In this document: positions 9,764-19,799 of the stretch, in pieces
Layout of the letters: the number at the start of each line of letters is the position of its first letter
How positions within the stretch are numbered: position 1 is the first letter of the stretch
DNA from: an uncultured Bacteroidia bacterium
GTDB lineage: Bacteria > Bacteroidota > Bacteroidia > Palsa-948
NCBI GenBank assembly: GCA_964481195.1
Contig: CAYZTB010000009.1
Coordinates: forward strand, 11,047 to 75,046
Length of the DNA stretch: 64,000 nucleotides
Reading direction: 5' to 3'
Program-made: the position numbers and the translations under genes
Notes under the pieces: model-generated
What the model was told of the DNA's origin: nothing
Seen by the model: the letters and a program-made list of their open reading frames with translations, nothing else
Database searches by the model: none

Positions 9764-10918
9764 TTAAATTAATTCGAGAATTTTTTTTCTTGTTTCAATA
9801 TCGGTGTTTATATAATCTTGATACGTTGGATTTTTAATGAACGACACAGAGTTCATACATGTTTCAATTAGTTCGCTCATCTTTAAAAAACTTATTTTAC
9901 CACTTAAAAACTCTTGTACTGCTATTTCATTTGCTGCATTTAAAATACAAGGACTATTCCCTCCCTTTTCCATAGCAATAAAGGCTAGAGCAAGGTTACG
10001 AAAAGTTTCAGTATCAGGCTTTTCAAATGTAAACGATGGATAATCCATGAAATTAAAGCGCTTAAATGAAGATGATATTCTTTTTGGGTATGACAACGCG
10101 TATTGAATAGGAAGTTTCATGTCCGGCAATCCTAATTGAGCTTTCATGCTTCCATCTTTAAACTGAGCGATGGAATGAATAATACTTTGTGGATGCACAA
10201 TTACTTCTATCTGATCTGCTTTTAGATTAAATAGCCACTTGGCTTCAATAACCTCCAAGCCTTTATTCATTAAGGAAGCAGAATCGATGGTGATTTTAGC
10301 CCCCATCTCCCAATTAGGATGCTGCAGGGCTTGCTCTTTTTTAACAGACTCTAAAAATTTCTTGTCCTTACCTCGAAATGGTCCGCCAGAAGCAGTTAAA
10401 TATATTTTTTCAATTGGATTTTCCCATTCTCCTGCCATACACTGGAAAATGGCAGAATGTTCAGAATCTACGGGATAGATATTTACTCCATTTTCTTTAG
10501 CTAACGCAGTTACAAGTTCTCCTGCAACTACTAAAGATTCCTTATTAGCAAGAGCAATATTTTTTTTTGCTTTAATAGCTGCTAGGGTGGAAGCTAAGCC
10601 TGCATATCCAACTATTGCAGCCAGCACTATGTGAATACTATCCATTTGAACTACTTGTTCAACAGATTTATTTCCAGCAAATACTTTTATGTCGTATCTA
10701 CTAAGCGAAGTTTTTACTTGATTGTATTTGCTTTCATCGGCAATGACTACCGCATTAGGTTTGAAAGCTATTGCTTGTTGGATAAGAAGATCTGCATTGC
10801 CATTTGCAGTAAGTACTTCCACAACAAATTTATCAAGATGCTCATTTATTACTTCGAGTGCCTGCGTTCCAATAGAACCGGTTGAGCCTAAAATAGCTAT
10901 GTGTTTTTTGTCGCTCAT
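9764..10918 (-). CDS. dxr: 1-deoxy-D-xylulose-5-phosphate reductoisomerase
   Basis: LGSTGSIG, LANKESLV, PVDSEHSAIFQ, TASGGPF, HPNWEMG, MNKGLEVIEA. Confidence 0.97.
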   Translation of the reverse strand: MSDKKHIAILGSTGSIGTQALEVINEHLDKFVVEVLTANGNADLLIQQAIAFKPNAVVIADESKYNQVKTSLSRYDIKVFAGNKSVEQVVQMDSIHIVLAAIVGYAGLASTLAAIKAKKNIALANKESLVVAGELVTALAKENGVNIYPVDSEHSAIFQCMAGEWENPIEKIYLTASGGPFRGKDKKFLESVKKEQALQHPNWEMGAKITIDSASLMNKGLEVIEAKWLFNLKADQIEVIVHPQSIIHSIAQFKDGSMKAQLGLPDMKLPIQYALSYPKRISSSFKRFNFMDYPSFTFEKPDTETFRNLALAFIAMEKGGNSPCILNAANEIAVQEFLSGKISFLKMSELIETCMNSVSFIKNPTYQDYINTDIETRKKILELI

Positions 10919-11805
10919 CAGAACACAATATATTCTTGTGGGTCAATAGCTTTTCCATTGTACCATAATTCAAAATGCAAATGTGGTCCACTACTTTGTT
11001 CGCCCGAATTTCCTATTACAGCAATGGCTTCTCCGGCTTTCACATACTGTCCGGCTTTTTTTAGTAGCACGGAGTTGTGCTTGTAAGCGGAAACTAAATT
11101 GTTTGAATGTTGTATCTGAATGGTAAATCCAGTTTCTGAAGTCCAGCCCGAAAATAATACGGTTCCATCTAATGTTGCTTTTATGGGTTCGTTTTCTTTT
11201 GCCACTATATCTGTTCCGTAATGTTCTTGATTTGCATTAAAAGAAGATGTTACCGTTCCTTTAACAGGTGTAAAAAAGAAAAAATTACTAATGCTTTCCT
11301 TGCCCGATTTTTTTTCTGAAAAGGTCAAAGAGTATTTGTCTTGTGCTTCAATCTCTGCACGAAAGAGGGAATCTTCTTTGGAAGGCCTGGTGTCAATTGC
11401 CTTTTGATCTTTACTGTTTTTAGTATTTGAATAACCAGCAGATTTATTGTTAAGGCTGTCGTTTCCAATATTTCCACTCATGATATTCATGATGTTTTTC
11501 ATGGCAGCTGAGCTTAGCTCCAATTCATGCTGAAGAGAATCAAATTTTAATGTAAGGCTAACCAGCTCTTTTCTGGTTTTTAGTTCCGATCCATAACCGG
11601 GGATGTATGCTTTCATCGGAGTAAAAGCCACCAAGCTTACCGTTAGTGTTATCATTATTATGGAGATTAAGCCAACCGTAATGAAGATGTTTAATGGGGT
11701 TAGTTTTAATGAAAACTGCTCTTCAAAACTATCGTCATTCATTACTACAAGCCGGTACCTGTTGCGGATTTTACTCCAAAAAGTAGATTTTTTCTTTTCT
11801 TCCAT
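10918..11805 (-). CDS. M23-family peptidase
   Basis: HYGTD and GPHLHFE motifs with an N-terminal TM helix. Start reassigned to MEEKKK (11805) because TATCTTTG lies on the minus strand at 11814-11821. Confidence 0.9.
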   Translation of the reverse strand: MEEKKKSTFWSKIRNRYRLVVMNDDSFEEQFSLKLTPLNIFITVGLISIIMITLTVSLVAFTPMKAYIPGYGSELKTRKELVSLTLKFDSLQHELELSSAAMKNIMNIMSGNIGNDSLNNKSAGYSNTKNSKDQKAIDTRPSKEDSLFRAEIEAQDKYSLTFSEKKSGKESISNFFFFTPVKGTVTSSFNANQEHYGTDIVAKENEPIKATLDGTVLFSGWTSETGFTIQIQHSNNLVSAYKHNSVLLKKAGQYVKAGEAIAVIGNSGEQSSGPHLHFELWYNGKAIDPQEYIVF

Positions 11806-11893
11806 TAGCCCCGCAAAGATATGGTTTTGGGCATACTTCATAGGGAAGTACTCATCAAATTCAGAATAATAATTAGAGGCATTAAAAATATAT

Positions 11894-11923
11894 TTTGTGG
11901 AATCAAAATCCTTTTTACCTTTG
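11894..11923 (+). promoter_or_regulatory. Sigma-A promoter of the sulfate assimilation operon
   Basis: TTTG 11894-11897, 18-nt spacer, TACCTTTG 11916-11923. Confidence 0.75.
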
Positions 11924-11944
11924 CCCCATCATTTAGAAACAACA

Positions 11945-12010
11945 ATGACAAACAATAAGCTCAACACGGTTAATAACGCATACAGCACTTGCTGTATGAT
12001 GTGTATTTAA
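11945..12010 (+). CDS. Cys/Met-rich leader peptide 1 (MTNNKLNTVNNAYSTCCMMCI, 21 aa)
   Basis: Hand translation. A-rich start context; five consecutive Cys/Met codons TGC TGT ATG ATG TGT at 11990-12004. Confidence 0.85.
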   Translation: MTNNKLNTVNNAYSTCCMMCI

Positions 12011-12014
12011 TTGT

Positions 12015-12058
12015 GGAAGAGTTTTAGTTAGTCAATAACGATATAACAAGGCTCTTCC
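12015..12058 (+). promoter_or_regulatory. Antiterminator of attenuator 1
   Basis: GGAAGAGTTTT (12015-12025) pairs with AAGGCTCTTCC (12048-12058), the 5' arm of terminator 1 (11 bp, 2 G-U). Confidence 0.8.
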
Positions 12059-12081
12059 GAAAGGAGGGGCCTTCTTTTTTT
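12048..12081 (+). terminator. Attenuator terminator 1
   Basis: AAGGCTCTTCC-GAAA-GGAGGGGCCTT hairpin (11 bp) followed by C and T7. Confidence 0.9.
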
Positions 12082-12106
12082 GCATCAAACTAATAGATAA
12101 AATAAA

Positions 12107-12208
12107 ATGAAAAATAAAATCAACATTCATACTTCAACCTTAAACATTACCCGTATGTGTATTTGTATGTGCATGTGTAGAGCGAGGGCCTATGCGTTGA
12201 GGTGTTGA
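12107..12208 (+). CDS. Cys/Met-rich leader peptide 2 (MKNKINIHTSTLNITRMCICMCMCRARAYALRC, 33 aa)
   Basis: Hand translation. Seven of eight codons at 12155-12178 are Cys/Met; A-rich start context. Confidence 0.85.
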   Translation: MKNKINIHTSTLNITRMCICMCMCRARAYALRC

Positions 12209-12228
12209 TGAAATTACACTTAAATGTC

Positions 12229-12265
12229 AAAAGCCCTTCCGCAAAAACGCAGAAGGGCTTTTTTT
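12229..12265 (+). terminator. Attenuator terminator 2
   Basis: AAAAGCCCTTC...GAAGGGCTTTT stem running into T7, ending 37 nt before the sir start. GCGAGGGC (12182-12189) can alternatively pair with GCCCTTCCGC. Confidence 0.9.
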
Positions 12266-12302
12266 ATGTCTTTAAACAAAATAATTTAAAAAAATAAATA
12301 CA

Positions 12303-14432
12303 ATGCAATCATTTAGAACAGAATTAGAAAACCCAGTTATAGAAAAAGACATTCTTGATTTAGAGAAAAAAATAATTCTATTTAAGGAAGGTAAAATAGA
12401 TTCAGAAAAATTTAGATCTCTGCGGCTAGCAAGGGGAGTATACGGACAGCGGCAGCAAGGGGTGCAGATGATTCGAATAAAAATCCCACTTGGAAAAATA
12501 ACAGTAAAACAACTTTTGAAAATTGCAGATATATCTGACGAATATTCAAATGGGAACTTACATTTAACTACACGACAAGATGTGCAAATACATTATGTGT
12601 CGCTTGATAAAACGCCAGAGCTATGGGCTAAGCTAGAAAAGGATGATATCACGCTGCGAGAAGCTTGCGGAAACACTGTGCGAAACATCACCGCCTCTTC
12701 TTTTGCGGGGATCGATCCGAAAGAACCATTTGATGTCACTCCCTATGCAGAAGGCTTGTTTCGTTTCTTCCTAAGAAATCCTATACAAGAAAACCTTGGG
12801 AGAAAATTCAAAATTGCTTTTTCGTCAAGCGAAAAGGACACAGCTTTTGTTTTTATTCATGATTTAGGCTTAATTCCAAAGGTTAAAATAATTGAGGGAA
12901 CAATAGTAAAAGGATTCAAGGTTGTAATTGCCGGTGGTCTTGGTGCGCAGCCACAATTGGCACAAATTGCCGATGAGTTTTTGCCAGCTGAATATTTAAT
13001 ACCGTTTGCTGAAGCAGTTGTACGTGTTTTTGATAGATATGGGGAAAGAAACAATCGTCATAAAGCTCGACTAAAATATTTGATAGCGAAGATTGGACTC
13101 GAAGAGTTTCTAAGGTTAGTAAAAGAAGAACGGCTTGCTTTAAAATCTAAGCCATCAGAAATAAAGATACTGCCGCCTGTTTCTGATTATTTTAATCAGG
13201 AAGAAAAAGGGAAAGTGTTTACTACTTTTAAAGTATCGGACACTGCTAATTATTTACAATGGAGAAATTCAAATGTAGTAGAGCAAAAGCAGCAAGGGTT
13301 TTTTGCAGTAGGCGTGCGGGTTCCATTGGGAAATATTCATTCAGATAAAGCACGGCAACTAGCCGATATAGTAAAAAAATATTCCTCTGACGATCTTCGA
13401 ATTACACTGAATCAAGGATTTTTGCTTCGGTTTGTTCCTAAAGATGCATTAGTTACTCTATACAAAGAGTTGAGTGCAATCAACCTTTCTTTAGCAGGCT
13501 TTGATAGCCTTGGCGATATTACAGCTTGCCCGGGTACCGATACTTGTAATCTTGGAATTTCAAACAGCACAGGAATTGCGCTTGAGTTGGAAAAAGTTAT
13601 TCAAAACGAGTATGCTGATTTGCTTTATGAAAAAAACATTAAAATTAAAATCAGTGGCTGCATGAACTCGTGCGGACAACATTCATTGGCGCATATTGGA
13701 TTTCATGGAAGCTCATTAAAATCTGGTTCTCATGTATTACCTGCTTTGCAAGTCCTATTAGGCGGTGGAGTGATTGGAGATGGATCAGGTAAAATATCTG
13801 ATAAAGTAATAAAGGTACCCAGCAAGCGAGGACCTGCTGTGCTACGTACCTTATTAGATGACTACGAGAAACAAAAAAATGGAAGTGAAACATTTAACCA
13901 GTATTATGAAAGAAAAGGCAATAATTATTTCTTTCAATTACTTAGACATCATGCTGATTTATCTACGCTTATTGAAAACGAATACAAAGACTGGGGCTAT
14001 GAAGAATCTTTTAAGCCTTTAATTGGTGTAGGGGAATGTGCCGGTGTTATGATAGATTTAGTAGCCACGTTGTTTTTAGAAGCGCAAGAAAAATTAGACG
14101 CTGCACAAACTGCATTTCAGGAAGACTTATTTGCAGATTCCATTTATCAAAGTTACGGTGCTTTTGTAAATGGAGCCAAAGCACTGTTGTTATCGAAGCA
14201 AATAACAAGTAATACACAACATGGAATACTTAATGAGTTTGATAAACATTTTGTAGCTACAGGTGATTTTGAATTTGAAGGAAAGTTTGTTGAAGAGGTT
14301 TTGGAAATCAATAAAGCAGAGCCAACAAAATCTTTCTCTCAAGCATATTTTTTTAATGCAAAAAAGTTTATCGAGAACATTATTCAAAAGAGAGAAAATC
14401 AATTGAGTCAACAAAATAATGTACTTGCTTAA
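12303..14432 (+). CDS. Siroheme sulfite reductase (NIR/SIR family) with C-terminal HEPN-like domain
   Basis: HLTTRQDVQ, REACGNTVRN, ACPGTDTC and KISGCMNSCGQH siroheme/4Fe-4S ligands; extra ~125-aa C-terminal helical domain; first gene of the cys operon. Confidence 0.9.
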   Translation: MQSFRTELENPVIEKDILDLEKKIILFKEGKIDSEKFRSLRLARGVYGQRQQGVQMIRIKIPLGKITVKQLLKIADISDEYSNGNLHLTTRQDVQIHYVSLDKTPELWAKLEKDDITLREACGNTVRNITASSFAGIDPKEPFDVTPYAEGLFRFFLRNPIQENLGRKFKIAFSSSEKDTAFVFIHDLGLIPKVKIIEGTIVKGFKVVIAGGLGAQPQLAQIADEFLPAEYLIPFAEAVVRVFDRYGERNNRHKARLKYLIAKIGLEEFLRLVKEERLALKSKPSEIKILPPVSDYFNQEEKGKVFTTFKVSDTANYLQWRNSNVVEQKQQGFFAVGVRVPLGNIHSDKARQLADIVKKYSSDDLRITLNQGFLLRFVPKDALVTLYKELSAINLSLAGFDSLGDITACPGTDTCNLGISNSTGIALELEKVIQNEYADLLYEKNIKIKISGCMNSCGQHSLAHIGFHGSSLKSGSHVLPALQVLLGGGVIGDGSGKISDKVIKVPSKRGPAVLRTLLDDYEKQKNGSETFNQYYERKGNNYFFQLLRHHADLSTLIENEYKDWGYEESFKPLIGVGECAGVMIDLVATLFLEAQEKLDAAQTAFQEDLFADSIYQSYGAFVNGAKALLLSKQITSNTQHGILNEFDKHFVATGDFEFEGKFVEEVLEINKAEPTKSFSQAYFFNAKKFIENIIQKRENQLSQQNNVLA

Positions 14433-14543: not shown

Positions 14544-15317
14544 ATGAAAAATAAAAATATACAACCTAAATTAACTTTAGTAGGCGCAGGCCCCGGAGAT
14601 CCAGACTTAATAACCGTAAAAGCTATCACCGCTTTAGGAAAAGCAGATGTTATACTTTATGATGCTTTAGCAAACAAGAAACTTTTGCAATACGCACCAT
14701 CGAGCATCAAAAAAATATTTGTAGGAAAGCGGAATGGAAAGCATTCCTTAAAGCAAGATCAAATAAATAATCTTATAGTTGACTTAGCTTTTACTTACGG
14801 CAATGTAGTCCGATTGAAAGGAGGCGACCCATTTGTATTTGGAAGAGGCTATGAAGAAATTCAGCATGCTGAGTTGTTCAATATTGTAACCGAAGTAATA
14901 CCAGGTATTTCATCCTCAGTAGGTGTTCCTGCCTTGGCTGGTATTCCAGTAACTCATCGTGGGCTAAGCGAAAGTTTTTGGGTAATTACAGGCACAACTC
15001 GTACAGGGGAATTATCTGCTGACATTAAGCTTGCCTCTCAATCAAAGGCTACGGTTGTCATTTTAATGGGCGTTAATAAGTTAAGCAAAATTGTAAAAAT
15101 CTACAAAGCTGCTGGCAAGGAAAAATTACCAATAGCATTAATTCAAAATGGAACTCTGCCTGATGAGCGTATTGCAATTGCAACAGTAGCAACAATAGAA
15201 GAAGCAGTGCAATTTAAAAAGATTGCTTCTCCCGCAATTATTATTATTGGAGAGGTGGTCAGTTTGCACCCAGAATTTATTTCTCAGGAATTATTTGAAA
15301 AATACGTATTGAATTAA
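14544..15317 (+). CDS. cobA: Uroporphyrinogen-III C-methyltransferase
   Basis: LVGAGPGDPDLIT, VRLKGGDPFVFGRGYEE, IPVTHRG. Confidence 0.95.
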   Translation: MKNKNIQPKLTLVGAGPGDPDLITVKAITALGKADVILYDALANKKLLQYAPSSIKKIFVGKRNGKHSLKQDQINNLIVDLAFTYGNVVRLKGGDPFVFGRGYEEIQHAELFNIVTEVIPGISSSVGVPALAGIPVTHRGLSESFWVITGTTRTGELSADIKLASQSKATVVILMGVNKLSKIVKIYKAAGKEKLPIALIQNGTLPDERIAIATVATIEEAVQFKKIASPAIIIIGEVVSLHPEFISQELFEKYVLN

Positions 15318-15335
15318 TCTTTGAATATATATATA

Positions 15336-16904
15336 ATGAACACAATTAATGAAAGTTCTACTATGTTAGAAGCCATACCTCGTACTGGTAATAAATTGTT
15401 TCCAATTTTTTTGAAATTGGAGAAACTAAAAGTCCTGATTGTTGGAGGTGGCTTGGTCGCTTTGGAAAAGCTTAAAGCTGTTTTAAATAATAGTCCAGAA
15501 ACAGCAATAGTCCTAATAGCTCCAGATATTATTCCCGAAATAGTTGTGCTAGCTTCTGGCCTGCAAACAATTTCAATCAAGCAACGAGTGTTTTTTCCAG
15601 GCGATTTATACTCGGCAGATCTTGTAATAGCTGCAACTGCCGATTCGGACACAAATAAAATTATTAAATCTGAATCACAGAAGCGAGGCATTTTGGTAAA
15701 CGTAGCTGATACTCCAGAGTTATGTGATTTTTATTTGGGAAGTATTGTGAGTAAAGGAGATTTAAAAATTGCCGTTTCTACCAACGGCAAATCTCCTACC
15801 ATGGCTAAGCGTGTAAAAGAAGTGTTGAATGAATCTTTTCCTCAGGAAACACAAGGCGTATTGGATAATCTGGAAACAATAAGGAAAAAATTGAACGGAG
15901 ATTTTTCCGATAAAGTTAGGAAGCTAAATGAAATTACTGCTGTGCTAGCAATAGAAAACAATTTAGCATCCTTGCAGCCACATATTTCGGTAGAACATGA
16001 AAACGCTAAGCCTCCCTATAAACAAACAAAATACTGGTTACTGTATTCTTTGTCTGCACTAGCTTTAATGATTGTTGGTCATTTATTATTTTCGTTTTTG
16101 CCAGTACCATACATAGGCGAATACATAGGTGATACTGTCGGGAAAATAGATAAAACAATATTGTTTTTTGTATTAGGAGGTTTTTTAGCTCAAATGGTAG
16201 ATGGCGCATTGGGCATGGCTTATGGCGTTACGGCTACTACTTTTTTACTTTCATATGGTATTGGAACTGCATCGGCAGTAGCGAGTGTTAAAGCTTCAGA
16301 AATATTTACCACAGGCGCTTCTGGTCTTATGCATTTGAAATTTAAAAATGTAAATACAAAACTGTTTAGGAGTTTATTATTCCCCGGTATTGTAGGTGCA
16401 ATTATTGGAGCGTATATACTTTCATCGCTAGGTAGTTACACGGATTATTTAAGACCATTTGTTTCTGCATATACATTAATATTAGGTGTAATAATTATTA
16501 GAAAAGCCATTCGTAAAAAAATACAAAAGCAAAAAATAAAGCGAGTCGGTCGGTTAGCATTGATTGGCGGTTTCCTCGATTCCATTGGTGGGGGAGGTTG
16601 GGGACCTATTGTTTCTTCTACTTTAATTGCAAGAGGCAGAGCGTTGCGTTATACTGTAGGATCGGTAAACCTGGCAGAATTTTTTATTACGCTGGCTAGT
16701 TCCATAACTTTTTTTACGCTTATAGGAATTCAACATTGGGATATTATTGTTGGATTAATTATTGGAGGAATGATTGCCTCGCCTTTTGCTGCCTACTTTA
16801 CTTCAAAAATACCAGTTAGAGCAGGGTTGATAACTGTTGGAATCGTAATAATAATTGTTAGTTTAAGAATACTAATAAAAACATATTTGAACCTATGGAC
16901 TTAA
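15336..16904 (+). CDS. Fusion of precorrin-2 dehydrogenase/ferrochelatase (CysG N-terminal part) and a TauE/SafE (TSUP) transporter
   Basis: LIVGGGLVA, VNVADTPELCDF and IAVSTNGKSP, then a multi-TM domain with DGALGMAYG and DSIGGGGWGP. Confidence 0.85.
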   Translation: MNTINESSTMLEAIPRTGNKLFPIFLKLEKLKVLIVGGGLVALEKLKAVLNNSPETAIVLIAPDIIPEIVVLASGLQTISIKQRVFFPGDLYSADLVIAATADSDTNKIIKSESQKRGILVNVADTPELCDFYLGSIVSKGDLKIAVSTNGKSPTMAKRVKEVLNESFPQETQGVLDNLETIRKKLNGDFSDKVRKLNEITAVLAIENNLASLQPHISVEHENAKPPYKQTKYWLLYSLSALALMIVGHLLFSFLPVPYIGEYIGDTVGKIDKTILFFVLGGFLAQMVDGALGMAYGVTATTFLLSYGIGTASAVASVKASEIFTTGASGLMHLKFKNVNTKLFRSLLFPGIVGAIIGAYILSSLGSYTDYLRPFVSAYTLILGVIIIRKAIRKKIQKQKIKRVGRLALIGGFLDSIGGGGWGPIVSSTLIARGRALRYTVGSVNLAEFFITLASSITFFTLIGIQHWDIIVGLIIGGMIASPFAAYFTSKIPVRAGLITVGIVIIIVSLRILIKTYLNLWT

Positions 16905-17596
16905 ATATTCTATCTAAAATCAACTCTGAGGTTTCAGGAAAAACTCCTTTAGCTGCGTTGACTGCAATTTCGAAAAATGAAGGAGTAGTTTTTTCTACCA
17001 GCTTTGGATTGGAGGATCAAGTTATGACCCACTTAATTTTTTCCAACAACCTGCCCATAAAAATTTTTACGCTGGATACAGGTAGATTGTTTCCTGAGAC
17101 CTATTCAGTTTGGAGCCGTACCAAAGAAATGTATAGTAAAGAAATACATGCGTATTCTCCAAATGAAAACTTAATTCAAGAGTTAATCTCTAAAAAGGGC
17201 CCCAACAGTTTTTATGAATCTGTAGAAAATAGATTGGAATGTTGCCATATCCGAAAAGTGGAACCTTTGCAACGAGCATTAAAAGGAAATTCTATTTGGA
17301 TAACCGGCATTCGTAAGGAACAATCGAATGCAAGGGGTGGCATTTCTTCTCTTGAATGGGATGATGTTAACAGTATCGTAAAATTTCATCCTTTGTTTGA
17401 TTGGAGTATGAATGAGGTAAAGAAATTTATTTCTGAAAACAATATTCCATACAACGCATTGCACGATAAAGGATTTCCAAGTATTGGTTGTCAGCCATGT
17501 ACGAGAGCAGTAAAAGAAGGAGAGGATGCCCGTGCAGGCCGTTGGTGGTGGGAGCAGAACAACAAAAAAGAATGTGGATTACATATACATAAATAG
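16895..17596 (+). CDS. cysH: Adenylyl-sulfate (APS/PAPS) reductase
   Basis: STSFGLED, LDTG, ECCHIRKVEPL, SIGCQPCT, KECGLH. Confidence 0.95.
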   Translation: MDLNILSKINSEVSGKTPLAALTAISKNEGVVFSTSFGLEDQVMTHLIFSNNLPIKIFTLDTGRLFPETYSVWSRTKEMYSKEIHAYSPNENLIQELISKKGPNSFYESVENRLECCHIRKVEPLQRALKGNSIWITGIRKEQSNARGGISSLEWDDVNSIVKFHPLFDWSMNEVKKFISENNIPYNALHDKGFPSIGCQPCTRAVKEGEDARAGRWWWEQNNKKECGLHIHK

Positions 17597-17603
17597 AAAA
17601 ATA

Positions 17604-18512
17604 ATGAAATACAAAAAATTAGATTATTTAGATCAACTAGAGTCTGAATCTATTCATATACTTCGAGAAGTGGCAGGTCAATTTGAACGACCCGCGTTGC
17701 TTTTTTCGGGAGGAAAAGATTCTATTACGCTTGTACATTTGGCATTAAAAGCTTTTCGTCCGGGCAAGTTTCCTTTTCCGCTCGTTCATATTGATACGGA
17801 GCATAATTTCCCTGAGGCAATTGAGTTTAGAGACAAACTAGCAAAGCAAATTGGCGAACGATTAATTGTTCGCAGTGTAGCGGATACCATAAAACAAAAA
17901 GGCTTGATTGAAAAACCTGGGCGATTTTACAGCAGGAACGCTTTGCAAACCCATACTTTACTTGAGACTATTGAAGAGTTTAAGTTTGATGCCTGCATTG
18001 GTGGAGCTCGTAGAGATGAAGAAAAGGCTAGAGCGAAGGAGCGTGTATTTTCTGTACGAGATGAATTTGGGCAGTGGAACCCTAAAAAACAAAGACCCGA
18101 ACTTTGGGGTCATTACAATGGAAGAATTAGCCAAGGTGAAAATGTTCGTGTTTTTCCTATTAGTAACTGGACCGAGTTGGATGTATGGAATTATATTAAG
18201 CGAGAGAAGATTGAACTACCATCCATCTATTTTTCTCATAAACGAAACTGTGTTATCAGGCCCGGTGGTTTACTGGCATTAACCGATTTTGTCTATACCG
18301 ATTCGCTGGATAAAATTGAAGAACGGACAGTTCGCTTTCGTACGGTGGGCGATGCTACGTGTACCGCTGCTGTTGAGTCCGAAGCAGAATCATTGGATGA
18401 CATCATTCGTGAAATTGAATTAACTAAAATAAGTGAACGAGGAGCTACTCGTTTAGATGACCAAACTTCGGAAGCGGCAATGGAGGACAGAAAGAAAGGA
18501 GGATATTTTTAA
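17604..18512 (+). CDS. cysD: Sulfate adenylyltransferase subunit 2
   Basis: LFSGGKDS, GARRDEEKARAKER, RFRTVGD, terminal GYF. Start reassigned to MKYKK (17604). Confidence 0.96.
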   Translation: MKYKKLDYLDQLESESIHILREVAGQFERPALLFSGGKDSITLVHLALKAFRPGKFPFPLVHIDTEHNFPEAIEFRDKLAKQIGERLIVRSVADTIKQKGLIEKPGRFYSRNALQTHTLLETIEEFKFDACIGGARRDEEKARAKERVFSVRDEFGQWNPKKQRPELWGHYNGRISQGENVRVFPISNWTELDVWNYIKREKIELPSIYFSHKRNCVIRPGGLLALTDFVYTDSLDKIEERTVRFRTVGDATCTAAVESEAESLDDIIREIELTKISERGATRLDDQTSEAAMEDRKKGGYF

Positions 18513-18539: not shown

Positions 18540-19799
18540 ATGGACTTACTAAGATTTTTAACAGCAGGAAATGTGGATGATGGGAAAAGTACTTTGATAG
18601 GACGATTGCTATATGATAGTGGCTCTGTATCGACAGATATTTTACAAGCAATTGAAAAAGCAAGCAAAGGGAAAAATAGTTCTGGTATTGACCTTTCGCT
18701 TCTTACCGATGGATTGAGAGCCGAGCGCGAGCAAGGAATTACTATTGATGTGGCTTATAAGTATTTTACCACACCCAAACGCAAATTTATTATTGCTGAT
18801 ACTCCTGGCCATGTGCAGTACACGCGCAACATGGTTACAGGAGCATCAAATTCAGATCTGGCAATTATTTTAATAGATGCACGTAATGGCATTTCAGAAC
18901 AAACTAGCAGACATTCTATCATTTCAACTTTGTTTGGAATTCGGCATTTAGTAGTCTGTGTAAATAAAATTGATTTGATGGATTATTCCCAGCAAGTGTT
19001 TGATGACATAGTTCGGGCGTACAAAGAATTTATAATTAAGATTAATCCTGAAGAGAATAATGAAAAAAGATATGACATCGTTTTTATTCCGGTTAGCGCT
19101 AAACTAGGCGATAACGTGGTAACACGCTCCCAGAAAATGCCTTGGTACACTGAAAAAACTTTGTTGGAGCATTTGGAGTCTGTAGAAGTAGATACAGATA
19201 CCAATTTGACTAACGCTAGATTTCCTGTGCAATACGTAATACGACCACAGCAAGATGACTTACACGATTACCGTGGCTATGCAGGTAAAATAATAAGCGG
19301 TACATTTAAAAAAGGCGATGCTGTAGAAGTTTTACCAGCCGGAATTTCATCACGTATCAAGGAAGTAGAAATATATGGGTCTTCGGTAGAAGAGGCCTAT
19401 GCTTCTCAATCTGTAATTTTACATCTCGAAGACGATGTAGATATTAGCAGGGGAGATGTGATAGTGAAAAATGACAAGGAGCTTTCTGTTACACAAGACC
19501 TTGAGGCAACAGTGTGTTGGATGAGTGAACGTTCATTACGTGTTGGTTCAAAGTTTCTAATCCAACAACATGGGAAAATTGTAAAAGCTGCTGTGAAAGA
19601 AGTTCTACATAAAATTAATGTAAATACCTTCGACAAAGTAGAAGGCGATAAGGTTGTTGCTCTGAATGAAATTGCTAAACTAAAACTACGTACGGCTTCA
19701 CCTATGGTGATTGATACGTTTCAGAAAAATAAAGCTAACGGAAGCTTTATATTAATAGATGAGAATACACACGAAACTGTTGGAGGTTGTGTAGTCTGA
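18540..19799 (+). CDS. cysN: Sulfate adenylyltransferase subunit 1 (GTPase), no fused APS kinase
   Basis: GNVDDGKSTLIGRLL, EREQGITIDVAY, DTPGH, NKID. Confidence 0.96.
   Translation: MDLLRFLTAGNVDDGKSTLIGRLLYDSGSVSTDILQAIEKASKGKNSSGIDLSLLTDGLRAEREQGITIDVAYKYFTTPKRKFIIADTPGHVQYTRNMVTGASNSDLAIILIDARNGISEQTSRHSIISTLFGIRHLVVCVNKIDLMDYSQQVFDDIVRAYKEFIIKINPEENNEKRYDIVFIPVSAKLGDNVVTRSQKMPWYTEKTLLEHLESVEVDTDTNLTNARFPVQYVIRPQQDDLHDYRGYAGKIISGTFKKGDAVEVLPAGISSRIKEVEIYGSSVEEAYASQSVILHLEDDVDISRGDVIVKNDKELSVTQDLEATVCWMSERSLRVGSKFLIQQHGKIVKAAVKEVLHKINVNTFDKVEGDKVVALNEIAKLKLRTASPMVIDTFQKNKANGSFILIDENTHETVGGCVV

Follow-up and report, generated by a model that had tools for sequence, protein, structure and literature searches.

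Putative tandem cysteine/methionine leader-peptide attenuators upstream of a sulfate-assimilation operon in an uncultured member of the Bacteroidia

The sulfate-assimilation operon and its leader

In this study, the leader of a sulfate-assimilation operon was analysed in a 64,000-nucleotide stretch of contig CAYZTB010000009.1 from an uncultured Bacteroidia bacterium (the whole stretch is referred to below as the window). The gene order downstream of the leader is sir-cobA-sirC/tauE-cysH-cysD-cysN, and the genes were annotated as follows:

12303..14432, + strand: sir, sulfite/nitrite reductase hemoprotein family, 709 aa (Pfam NIR_SIR and NIR_SIR_ferr)
14544..15317, + strand: cobA-type uroporphyrinogen-III methyltransferase of the siroheme branch (Pfam TP_methylase)
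15321..16904, + strand: SirC-like siroheme synthase N-domain fused to a TauE/SafE membrane protein, 527 aa (Pfam NAD_binding_7, Sirohm_synth_M and TauE; NCBIfam cysG_Nterm above its cut-off)
16895..17596, + strand: cysH, (P)APS reductase (Pfam PAPS_reduct; NCBIfam NF002537 and TIGR02055 above their cut-offs)
17526..18512, + strand: cysD, sulfate adenylyltransferase small subunit (Pfam PAPS_reduct; matches the cysD-like ORFs of loci L127 and L128)
18540..19799, + strand: cysN, sulfate adenylyltransferase GTPase subunit and last gene of the operon (Pfam GTP_EFTU and GTP-eEF1A_C; the next ORF is on the opposite strand)

The best NCBIfam match of the sir product was to a NirA-family model, below the cut-off of that model, and the operon context points to sulfite as its substrate. 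The true start of cysD probably lies downstream of position 17526.

The leader is 375 nt long and contains two short ORFs (sORFs), both located between a promoter box and sir (12303). Its features are:

11916..11923, + strand: -7 promoter box of the Bacteroidetes type, TACCTTTG (motif TAnnTTTG; assigned by position and conservation)
11945..12010, + strand: leader ORF 1, 21 codons, MTNNKLNTVNNAYSTCCMMCI (ends ...STCCMMCI; ATG at 11945, TAA at 12008-12010)
11979..11998, + strand: small hairpin with the Cys codons as its 3' arm (from folding; the 5-bp core was independently predicted by RNAalifold)
11990..12004, + strand: control codons of unit 1, UGC UGU AUG AUG UGU (from the codon table; three Cys and two Met in five consecutive codons)
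12014..12025, + strand: antiterminator 5' strand of unit 1 (12 pairs with 12048-12059; begins 4 nt past the stop codon)
12048..12081, + strand: intrinsic terminator 1 (11-bp stem at 12048-12073; U-run at 12074-12081, CTTTTTTT after the stem; hairpin -17.9 kcal/mol)
12107..12208, + strand: leader ORF 2, 33 codons, MKNKINIHTSTLNITRMCICMCMCRARAYALRC (ends ...RMCICMCMCRARAYALRC; ATG at 12107, TGA at 12206-12208)
12155..12178, + strand: control codons of unit 2, AUG UGU AUU UGU AUG UGC AUG UGU (four Cys and three Met in eight codons)
12182..12189, + strand: antiterminator 5' strand of unit 2, within leader ORF 2 (codons GCG AGG GCC; pairs with 12233-12242)
12229..12265, + strand: intrinsic terminator 2 (stem at 12229-12262, U-run to 12265; hairpin -19.0 kcal/mol)

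A preliminary description of this DNA had proposed both sORFs with their peptides, a terminator behind each of them and an alternative pairing partner for each terminator 5' arm, and all of these elements were recovered at the positions listed above. A simple terminator scan listed terminator 1 alone because of its loop and stem rules.

A sigma-70-type promoter scan is uninformative for Bacteroidota, and the Bacteroidetes -7 motif was used in its place. Between the divergent upstream gene and sir (11842-12302), TAnnTTTG occurs a single time on the + strand, at 11916-11923, and from this box a transcript start at ~11928 and a 5' UTR of sORF1 of ~17 nt are predicted (the -7 consensus and its spacing of 4-5 nt to the start are given in the accessible text of PMC6847099). 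As the motif is not enriched across the whole window (80 found versus 94 expected), the evidence for the box consists of its position and its conservation. Translation in Bacteroidota is initiated without Shine-Dalgarno pairing. Both sORF ATGs are preceded by an A-rich context, as expected for start sites in this phylum according to the accessible text of PMC6847099.

Architecture and folding of the two units

The units represent two types. In type A (unit 1), the stop codon is located immediately 3' of the control codons, and the homologues in relatives are sORFs ending in MMCCMMC[AI], MCCMC and similar strings, while in type B (unit 2) the reading frame runs across the antiterminator strand, with homologues of the form ...MCMCCMMYLRMRKA..MHYCKR and ...MCCCCYMRTRKGFVFKR. 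Equilibrium folding of the full-length leader with the ribosome masked returned the terminator every time, and it was replaced by footprint-aware folding, in which folding is restricted to the RNA from the 3' edge of the ribosome to the terminator loop.

In unit 1, this analysis revealed that the antiterminator is left free when the ribosomal A site is at 11990-11999 (UGC 11990, UGU 11993, AUG 11996 or AUG 11999), partly free when it is at 12002, and blocked when it is at the stop codon (12008). The antiterminator hairpin has an energy of -18.8 kcal/mol, the energy of the antiterminator/arm duplex was matched by none of 100 shuffles, and the fold of the unit compared with shuffles gave z = -7.2 (0/200). 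In the family alignment of the type A terminator, 89.8% of the cells are paired, 7 of the 12 pairs are compensatory and none of 500 shuffles reached an equal result; RNAalifold recovers this terminator unaided. The type A antiterminator has 93.3% of its cells paired and compensatory changes in 2 of 8 pairs, a score reached in 5 of 500 shuffles, so that covariation is modest here and most of the support comes from conservation.

The small hairpin over the Cys codons is also found in the family alignment (82.5% of the cells paired, with a change from G:C to A:U in two sequences), and it could possibly act as a pause or timing hairpin. The minimum free energy structure of unit 1 additionally includes a long-range anti-antiterminator, whereas the family consensus (RNAalifold) keeps only the 5-bp hairpin over the Cys codons. 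Since the anti-antiterminator is present in the window yet outside the family consensus, the behaviour of the leader without translation may differ from that of trp.

In unit 2, the antiterminator is left free by only the first five of the eight control codons: with the A site at 12155-12167 it is free, at 12170 it is so only in part, and at 12173, at 12176 and at the stop codon (12206) it is lost. It has an energy of -20.5 kcal/mol with its inner hairpin, but the bare duplex (-11.7 kcal/mol) was equalled by 11 of 100 shuffles and is thus weaker than that of the relatives' CGNAAGGGNTT, a mimic of the terminator 3' arm. The window's unit 2 antiterminator carries a deletion relative to these relatives and is the weakest case of antiterminator placement. 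The fold of unit 2 compared with shuffles (z = -3.5, 3/200) was more moderate than that of unit 1. Among 17 aligned type-B units, the terminator core AAGCCCTTCCG...GAAGGGCTT is almost invariant; as the type-B terminator and antiterminator vary so little, their alignment holds little information for or against the pairing. Locus L015 was omitted from alignment A1, and loci L010, L095 and L047 from alignment A2.

Conservation of the leaders in other Bacteroidota

The regions upstream of sir in relatives, named in the preliminary description as a place to look for similar leaders, were searched, and sORFs with Cys/Met runs were found to recur there. Within the last 500 nt before sir, such sORFs are present in 49 of 92 unique loci of other Bacteroidota; the reverse complement gave 5 of 92 and shuffled sequences 2 of 92, and the leader sORFs are therefore above chance. 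(Locus L009 was dropped because its sir match begins at residue 150, and L016 and L023 were dropped as duplicates of L005 and L006.) Of the 63 sORF units of this kind, 54 have a terminator of -10 kcal/mol or stronger on their 3' side. The antiterminator strand starts 17-43 nt past the first Cys codon in nearly all units tabulated (20-30 nt in the two units of the window), and the mean energy of the duplex between the antiterminator and its cognate arm is -11.6 kcal/mol, versus -8.3 kcal/mol with the arms of other units and -6.2 kcal/mol in shuffled regions. In 29 of 49 units, no more than 5 of 100 shuffles matched the antiterminator duplex. Features conserved in distant taxa are the in-frame ATG, the Cys/Met codon run and the stop codon, while the N-terminal sequence and the length vary and UGC and UGU replace each other in synonymous changes.

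At least 21 loci share the two-unit layout, and in these the -7 box stands ahead of the first unit alone. Of 22 tandem loci, 21 have the motif start 16-36 nt 5' of the first sORF (18 of them at 24-29 nt), and within 70 nt of the second sORF it is present in none of 21; such a box does occur within 70 nt of unit B in the single-unit loci L004, L010 and L095. Together with the single + strand box in the window, these positions bear out the earlier proposal of one promoter followed by two units in series before sir. The sequence 3' of terminator 1 is unconserved in relatives.

No convincing leader was found within 1.5 kb upstream of sir in 33 of the 92 loci, and the element is thus widespread, not universal. 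In some Sphingobacteriales, an Rrf2 gene is located upstream of sir instead. Three loci (L106, L107 and L109) carry a distinct leader family, with the terminator CCTCTGC/GCAGAGG and a matching CCGCAGAG within the sORF; a SAM-II Rfam match was also found in these three loci. One of the leader carriers is a MAG labelled Ignavibacteria. A scan of the bacterium's own genome for further Cys/Met leaders gave no more than the two units described here; the remaining candidates had no clean terminators or were part of long frames.

A pattern of the MCCMM type gave 54 matches in 401 genomes versus 2 for the reversed control. Leaders of this type with terminators precede sir, AKR-sir, APS kinase (cysC)-cysD-cysN, a cysE-like gene and an OAH/OAS sulfhydrylase (metY-like) gene; the leader of the last one, MKNNNKMCCMMMMCMCAPP, is especially rich in Met and is followed by the metY-like and then a MetX-like gene. 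Many of the 41 matches that were examined lie in or before unrelated genes (GyrB, glutamate dehydrogenase, Omp28, LPG synthase and others) without a terminator and were treated as chance. Matches also adjoin SufBD (L121) and a rhodanese protein (L101). Among the non-Cys residues of the leader peptides, Met accounts for 39 of 76 (51%) inside the runs, 89 of 240 flanking them and 48 of 1228 (4%) in the remainder of the peptides (these statistics leave out seven sORFs, in other frames or far upstream, that were taken for chance occurrences), and three type-A leaders have two Cys but four Met (MMCCMM). The mixing of Cys and Met control codons is a conserved trait that extends beyond this genome.

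Proposed mechanism, alternatives and related systems

The leader is probably composed of two ribosome-mediated transcription attenuators with Cys/Met control codons, placed in series behind one promoter and before the sulfate-assimilation operon. This reading builds on direct observations: the anatomy, energetics and conservation of the units, covariation in the terminator and the antiterminator, the presence of only one promoter box and the association with sulfur genes. According to the proposed mechanism, a ribosome would translate the short ORF, in which Cys (UGY) control codons are interleaved with Met (AUG). With charged tRNA-Cys, and probably tRNA-Met, in plentiful supply, it would proceed; in unit 1, the ribosome at the stop codon would cover the antiterminator strand that starts 4 nt further on, and in unit 2 it would translate across this strand. 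With the antiterminator blocked, the terminator hairpin would form and transcription would end at ~12081 or ~12265. At low levels of charged tRNA, the ribosome would stall at the first control codons and leave free the strand 20-30 nt downstream, which would pair with the terminator 5' arm so that RNA polymerase reads on. RNA polymerase would have to clear both checkpoints before sir. We infer the translation of the sORFs and the stalling on Cys and Met codons from this arrangement, and two units in series may sharpen or multiply the response.

It is rather unlikely that the attenuators respond to Cys only, with the AUGs serving as RNA structure, as internal starts that load ribosomes beside the Cys codons or as mere hitch-hikers. 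In the small hairpin of the window, AUG AUG is paired to a CAUA on its 5' side, the Met directly before the Cys run in Pedobacter-type leaders (MMCCCKTQ) could be the real start, and the more distant leaders L036, L015 and L095 are nearly pure poly-Cys. However, Met occurs both 5' and 3' of Cys (MMCCMMC, MCMCCMM), Met codons outnumber Cys codons in some leaders, the Met-rich leader precedes a metY-like gene, the hairpin pairs expected for the 3' AUGs are open in 8 and 9 of the 13 sequences, and AUG near start codons is otherwise avoided in Bacteroidetes (accessible text of PMC6847099). A metabolite- or protein-binding RNA switch (a riboswitch, a T-box-like element or a regulator-bound RNA) with untranslated sORFs would account for the unusual conservation of the terminator/antiterminator sequences AAGCCCTTCCG and GGAAAGCC, as for a binding site, but it would leave unexplained the strand asymmetry among the sir loci, the A-rich context of both ATGs and the retention of ATG, codon run and stop across distant taxa despite a variable N-terminus and synonymous codon changes. 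No Rfam family matched at threshold: the best match in 11000-13000 is an unrelated sRNA (32 bits against a threshold of 55 bits), and no SAM or T-box family appeared at E ≤10, where all hits were sub-threshold and to unrelated families, so that the reading as a riboswitch or T-box was rejected. An RNA switch of any of these kinds is very unlikely indeed.

Two further explanations concern the independence of unit 1 and the role of the peptides. If an internal promoter drove unit 2 and the operon, unit 1 would form a short transcript of its own (either a small RNA or a small-protein gene) and the units would not be in series. The U-run of terminator 1 with the following G gives TTTTTTTG, a partial -7 box, and the sigma-70-type scan lists a weak site at 12079-12108; against this stand the distribution of the box described above (none near unit B in tandem loci, present in single-unit loci), the unconserved sequence 3' of terminator 1, the irrelevance of the sigma-70 consensus as a promoter type in Bacteroidota and the -11 A of the box, which is almost invariant among real promoters (accessible text of PMC6847099), and we regard an internal promoter as very unlikely. 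That the Cys/Met-rich peptides are themselves the functional product (metal-binding or modified), the hairpins being ordinary gene-end terminators, would fit their conservation as two recognisable families, but scarcely any credence can be given to it: the peptides are always encoded directly 5' of genes for sulfur assimilation or Cys/Met biosynthesis, with the same orientation and no promoter box between, the antiterminator strand supplies the codons for the conserved C-terminal residues of type B, and genes for modification or export are absent next door.

The reading as serial attenuators has well-known parallels. In trpL and hisL, a short ORF with end-product codons is combined with an intrinsic terminator and a ribosome-dependent, mutually exclusive antiterminator, and the thr and ilv leaders have mixed control codons (Thr and Ile; Ile, Val and Leu). 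The preliminary description had assigned the leader to the trpL/hisL-type architecture, and this is supported by the control-codon sORF, terminator and exclusive antiterminator of both units and by their conservation in relatives. Shared with trpL and hisL are the clustered end-product codons, the terminator before the first structural gene and the antiterminator dependent on ribosome position, and the thr and ilv leaders are a precedent for mixing Cys with Met. Unlike trpL and hisL, the leader uses Cys and Met codons, belongs to a phylum without Shine-Dalgarno-led initiation, comprises two full units in series and places the type B antiterminator within the ORF. RNAalifold found no conserved anti-antiterminator in the family. 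More than one switch in a single leader is also known from tandem riboswitches and T-boxes. Bacteroid-trp (Rfam RF01692), which we take to be the Trp-codon leader of Bacteroidetes trp operons, would represent the leader-peptide class of attenuator in this phylum, but for another amino acid and of another family; RF01692 matches B. thetaiotaomicron and gave no match in the bacterium's own genome.

The earlier statement that Cys-rich leader ORFs are described in Actinobacteria is correct, with two sources to be distinguished. Seliverstov et al. 2005 (PMC1262725) predicted Cys leader peptides before cys operons by comparative genomics, in the accessible text with no conserved terminator hairpin and with a suggestion of Rho, whereas the Bacteroidota elements have both terminator and antiterminator. 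Canestrari et al. (bioRxiv 10.1101/834739), where the general mechanism of leader-peptide attenuation is also outlined, describe mycobacterial polycysteine leaderless sORFs at which stalling on Cys codons relieves repression at low cysteine; the ribosome-binding region of the following gene is sequestered by pairing with the Cys tract, control is translational and termination was excluded by a reporter, and the accessible text notes the lack of an earlier description of uORF-mediated cysteine attenuation. Those sORFs likewise have runs of Cys codons upstream of sulfur-metabolism genes, but the present leader has Met beside Cys, a predicted 5' UTR and strong intrinsic terminators after both sORFs, and its assignment to the leaderless translational class was rejected on account of the UTR and the terminators. 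In Salmonella mgtCBR, two sORFs act on stem-loops in one long leader (PMC3641672, accessible text), so that more than one sensing sORF precedes a single operon there too, but they respond to different signals, whereas here two complete sORF-antiterminator-terminator units have the same kind of control codons.

A full-text literature search, with most subscription journals outside its scope, found no Cys or Cys/Met leader described for Bacteroidota and in particular no tandem Cys/Met attenuator, in agreement with the preliminary description. A Russian-language survey of attenuators was reportedly published by Lopatovskaya and co-workers in 2010. We know of no precedent for Met codons as attenuator control codons, of no description of combined Cys and Met control codons in a terminator-based attenuator and of no established account of how sulfate assimilation and Cys/Met synthesis are controlled in Bacteroidota. 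The mechanism would be that of classical ribosome-mediated attenuation, and the new aspects would be the Cys and Met signal, the phylum and the conserved series arrangement.

A broader proposal, about equally likely to hold or to fail, is that these leaders form a phylum-wide Bacteroidota regulon of terminator-based attenuators that read the charging of tRNA-Cys and tRNA-Met and take the place that proteins of the CysB/CymR type hold in other phyla. They would then be the first terminator-based cysteine attenuators and the first with Met control codons, types A and B would have been kept in series behind one promoter as an ancient, selected design (for steeper induction or to demand a sustained signal), and the same leaders would govern cysC-cysD-cysN, cysE-like, metY-like and MetX-like genes. 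The leader offers a concrete, testable account of sulfur control in Bacteroidota that needs no regulator protein, and it would extend classical attenuation to two amino acids not known for it, in a phylum without Shine-Dalgarno initiation. The conserved two-unit series occurs naturally and would be suited to studying what is gained from attenuators in tandem. Sulfur regulons of uncultured Bacteroidota may be annotated with the help of the peptide and terminator signatures, and the leaders flag the aldo/keto reductase and the TauE fusion as co-regulated sulfur genes.

Leader region and operon in the window

The sulfate assimilation operon of this 3.19-Mb genome (36.7% G+C) is probably governed by a series of two leader-peptide transcription attenuators with Cys/Met control codons. 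The preliminary description had placed two short ORFs (sORFs), each with a terminator, in front of sir, the first gene of the operon, and the sequence agrees exactly with that placement. In the list below, the stop codon of a type A sORF directly follows the control codons, and a type B sORF reads through the antiterminator strand.

Features of the leader region (window coordinates)
10918-11841, -: M23 peptidase gene, divergent, upstream of the leader
11945-12010, +: sORF1, peptide MTNNKLNTVNNAYSTCCMMCI, type A
12048-12073, +: terminator 1, an 11-bp G+C-rich hairpin, then CTTTTTTT
12107-12208, +: sORF2, peptide MKNKINIHTSTLNITRMCICMCMCRARAYALRC, type B
12229-12262, +: terminator 2, a hairpin with a U-run to 12265
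12303-14432, +: sulfite/nitrite-reductase-family gene (sir), 709 aa

No Rfam family reached threshold in the window leader, and a genome scan found no further Cys/Met leaders in this genome beyond the sir operon. Compared with shuffled sequences, the fold of unit 1 was far better (z -7.2) and that of unit 2 moderately so (z -3.5).

Downstream of sir, the operon comprises genes for a cobA-type methyltransferase, a SirC-TauE fusion, cysH, cysD and cysN, and ends at 19799. The fusion (15321-16904, +) is one 527-aa frame with a TTG start, in which residues 27-199 are a SirC-like siroheme-synthase N-domain and residues 284-516 a TauE/SafE sulfite-exporter-family membrane domain; at another sir locus (L011) TauE has its own gene immediately upstream of sir. 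The sir protein has a C-terminal extension (residues 590-673) that weakly matches a HEPN domain (E 3e-5, 24.6 bits; cut-off, 22 bits) and is conserved, since relatives match across about 700 residues. As listed, the frames of cysH (16895-17596) and cysD (17526-18512) share 71 nt; since the Pfam match of cysD begins at residue 56, translation of cysD probably starts some way past 17526.

Recurrence of the leaders at sir and other sulfur genes

The stretch upstream of sir was searched for sORFs that open with ATG and contain a Cys/Met run, in 14 relatives and 80 named genome records (Bacteroidia MAGs, Chitinophaga, Arcticibacter, Mucilaginibacter, Pedobacter, Pontibacter and others, including MAGs labelled Ignavibacteriaceae/Ignavibacteriales). 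In this search, of a kind proposed in the preliminary description, at least one such sORF was present in the last 500 nt at 49/92 unique sir loci and two or more at 17 of them, although the relatives are not independent and these locus counts overstate the statistical weight. The controls gave 5/92 loci (reverse complement) and 2/92 (shuffles). Seven further loci have a tandem pair 1.0-1.35 kb upstream of sir, ahead of an interposed aldo/keto-reductase gene. With a stricter Cys criterion, 54/63 units had a hairpin of at most -10 kcal/mol and a U-run behind the sORF.

Two peptide types recur: type A, to which sORF1 belongs, stops right after the run (e.g. MNNNFTYTLT.SNSPMMCCMMC[AI]), and type B, which includes sORF2, has a longer tail (e.g. 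...MCMCCMMYLRMRKA..MHYCKR or ...MCCCCYMRTRKGFVFKR). A MAG labelled Ignavibacteriaceae (L047) also has a tandem leader before sir, in which the terminator and antiterminator sequences are particular to it (GAGGTCTTTCAGC with GTTGAAAGAC), so the element extends beyond the class of the window.

No convincing leader was found within 1.5 kb at 33/92 sir loci; in some of these an Rrf2-family regulator gene lies directly upstream, and in others the cluster begins with a gene other than sir. The former include Mucilaginibacter and Pedobacter loci (L034:734-1168 and L087:883-1329; 145-149 aa, same strand as sir); in this position, a frame of 144-149 aa on the strand of sir was also seen at roughly twelve other leaderless loci. 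The Rrf2 gene may represent an alternative, protein-based control at leaderless loci.

A 15-base pattern for Met-Cys-Cys-Met-Met, searched in 401 genomes of the window's class, gave 54 matches in 45 genomes (reversed control, 2 matches), of which 41 were examined. The genes listed below follow a match that lies in a short ORF with a terminator after it; the remaining examined matches stand beside unrelated genes, lack a terminator and look like chance.

Genes behind pattern-matched Cys/Met leaders (L, loci in other genomes)
sir, directly after leader and terminator: L122-L125
aldo/keto reductase, then sir: L097, L099, L134 (L098 checked only to the reductase)
APS kinase-cysD-cysN: L127, L128 (the same genomes also carry a tandem leader at the reductase-sir locus)
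serine-acetyltransferase-like gene: L107
O-acetylhomoserine/O-acetylserine sulfhydrylase gene: L106, L109 (tandem leader)
O-acetylhomoserine/O-acetylserine sulfhydrylase gene, then OsmC-like and MetX-like genes: L129

The reductase gene (about 290 aa) between tandem leader and sir was seen at L097, L098, L099 (the same place as L006) and L134, and likewise at L017, L019, L020 and L024-L026; from this position it is predicted to be co-regulated with sulfate assimilation. SAM-II riboswitches above the gathering score (L106:1197-1303, -; L109:1713-1819, +; L107:1146-1225, -) adjoin the Cys/Met leaders on the opposite locus strand (the L109 leader is on the minus strand), so that riboswitch-controlled and predicted leader-controlled sulfur genes are neighbours. 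Short frames starting with MCCMM also occur 88 nt before a SufB/D gene (L121, G233:C113) and 2 nt before a rhodanese-domain gene (L101, G115:C22); these may be leaders, N-termini or chance occurrences.

Predicted switching between antiterminator and terminator

Folding was modelled with an assumed ribosome footprint of -15 to +13 around the A-site codon, using only the RNA already out of the ribosome, up to the terminator loop. For unit 1, the model gives an antiterminator hairpin (12014-12059, -18.8 kcal/mol) when the A site is at UGC 11990, UGU 11993, AUG 11996 or AUG 11999; the hairpin is partial at UGU 12002 and absent at the stop codon 12008, where the terminator (-17.9) is the only structure that can form. 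The antiterminator of unit 2 (12182-12189 with 12233-12242, -20.5 kcal/mol including an inner hairpin) can pair while the A site is at 12155-12167, is partial at 12170, and is absent at 12173, 12176 and the stop codon 12206. Each terminator 5' arm thus has a predicted alternative partner, as had been claimed, and the modelled ribosome-dependent folds of both units are those of classical attenuator geometry. The bare duplex of unit 2 is weak (11/100 shuffles reach its energy). In the free RNA the unit 1 antiterminator is predicted to be sequestered by long-range pairing, for which RNAalifold found no conservation in the family alignment.

Across the family, nearly all units listed have the best partner of the terminator 5' arm at 17-43 nt past the first Cys codon. 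The type A antiterminator strand begins 2-5 nt after the stop codon; that of type B is inside the ORF, where conserved Arg-Lys-Gly-Phe codons (CGNAAGGGNTT) mimic the terminator 3' arm. Mean strand/arm duplex energies were -11.6 kcal/mol for cognate pairs, -8.3 with other units' arms and -6.2 for shuffled regions, and at most 5/100 shuffles reached the cognate energy in 29/49 distinct units. In the type A alignment (n=15), 89.8% of terminator positions were paired, with two-sided changes at 7/12 pairs (0/500 shuffles), and 93.3% for the antiterminator, with two-sided changes at 2/8 pairs (5/500 shuffles). RNAalifold independently recovered the type A terminator, together with a 5-bp hairpin having the Cys codons as its 3' arm. 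Both type B structures are almost invariant, hence conserved yet uninformative for covariation. The leaders at L106, L107 and L109 form an unrelated-looking family with a different terminator sequence and a matching strand within the sORF, which is covariation at the family level.

Proposed signal, series layout and known systems

Among 63 distinct sir-upstream leader peptides, Met makes up 39/76 of the non-Cys residues within the run (counted from its first Cys to its last), and 89/240 in the two positions on either side, against 48/1228 elsewhere. Three type A leaders contain MMCCMM (four Met, two Cys), and the leader before the L129 sulfhydrylase gene contains MCCMMMMCMC. The small hairpin over the Cys codons does not account for the 3' AUG codons of most sequences. 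Sulfide from the pathway feeds cysteine and, via sulfhydrylase, homocysteine, and a two-amino-acid signal is therefore physiologically sensible. The thr and ilv leaders have mixed control codons and offer a formal precedent for such a signal, in which Cys and Met would be read together.

The Bacteroidetes -7 element is TAnnTTTG, with transcription starting 4-5 nt after it, as described in PMC6847099. On the plus strand from 11842 to 12302 the element matches only once, as TACCTTTG (11916-11923); with the published spacing, transcription is expected to begin near 11928, which would leave about 17 nt of 5' UTR. The motif starts 16-36 nt before the type A ATG at 21/22 tandem loci (24-29 nt in 18), the exception being the Ignavibacteriaceae-labelled MAG (L047), which lacks a TAnnTTTG box, and was found within 70 nt of the type B ATG at 0/21; this fits the claimed order of one promoter followed by two units. 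Three of six single-unit loci (L004, L010, L095) have it within 70 nt of the ATG. Types A and B are built differently and each is kept across families; the series is therefore old and does not stem from a recent duplication. A second conserved TAAATTTG, 29 nt upstream of the -7 box and 45-56 nt before the type A ATG, was seen at L006, L007, L017, L018, L022, L024-L026, L028, L029 and L033, and at L004 (27 nt); it could serve as an upstream element of the promoter or mark a second start site.

Cys-codon leaders in Actinobacteria, to which the preliminary description had referred, are indeed described, in PMC1262725 without terminators, whereas the Bacteroidota elements have them. Mycobacterial Cys-codon leaders are presented in 10.1101/834739 as leaderless and acting on translation, and its authors state there that uORF-mediated attenuation for cysteine had not previously been described. 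The main texts of transcriptome papers on Flavobacterium psychrophilum and Bacteroides thetaiotaomicron treat leader-peptide-like sORFs only in general terms. No Cys or Cys/Met attenuator in Bacteroidota was found in the full-text literature, as covered by the main texts of mostly open-access papers, in line with the preliminary description.

Predicted folds, conservation and covariation support the leader-peptide attenuator interpretation. What departs from the textbook mechanism is the signal, the lineage, the regulon and the conserved tandem layout. On wholly computational grounds, we consider it likely that two Cys/Met leader-peptide attenuators in series control sulfate assimilation here, as part of a wider sulfur regulon of the Bacteroidota.
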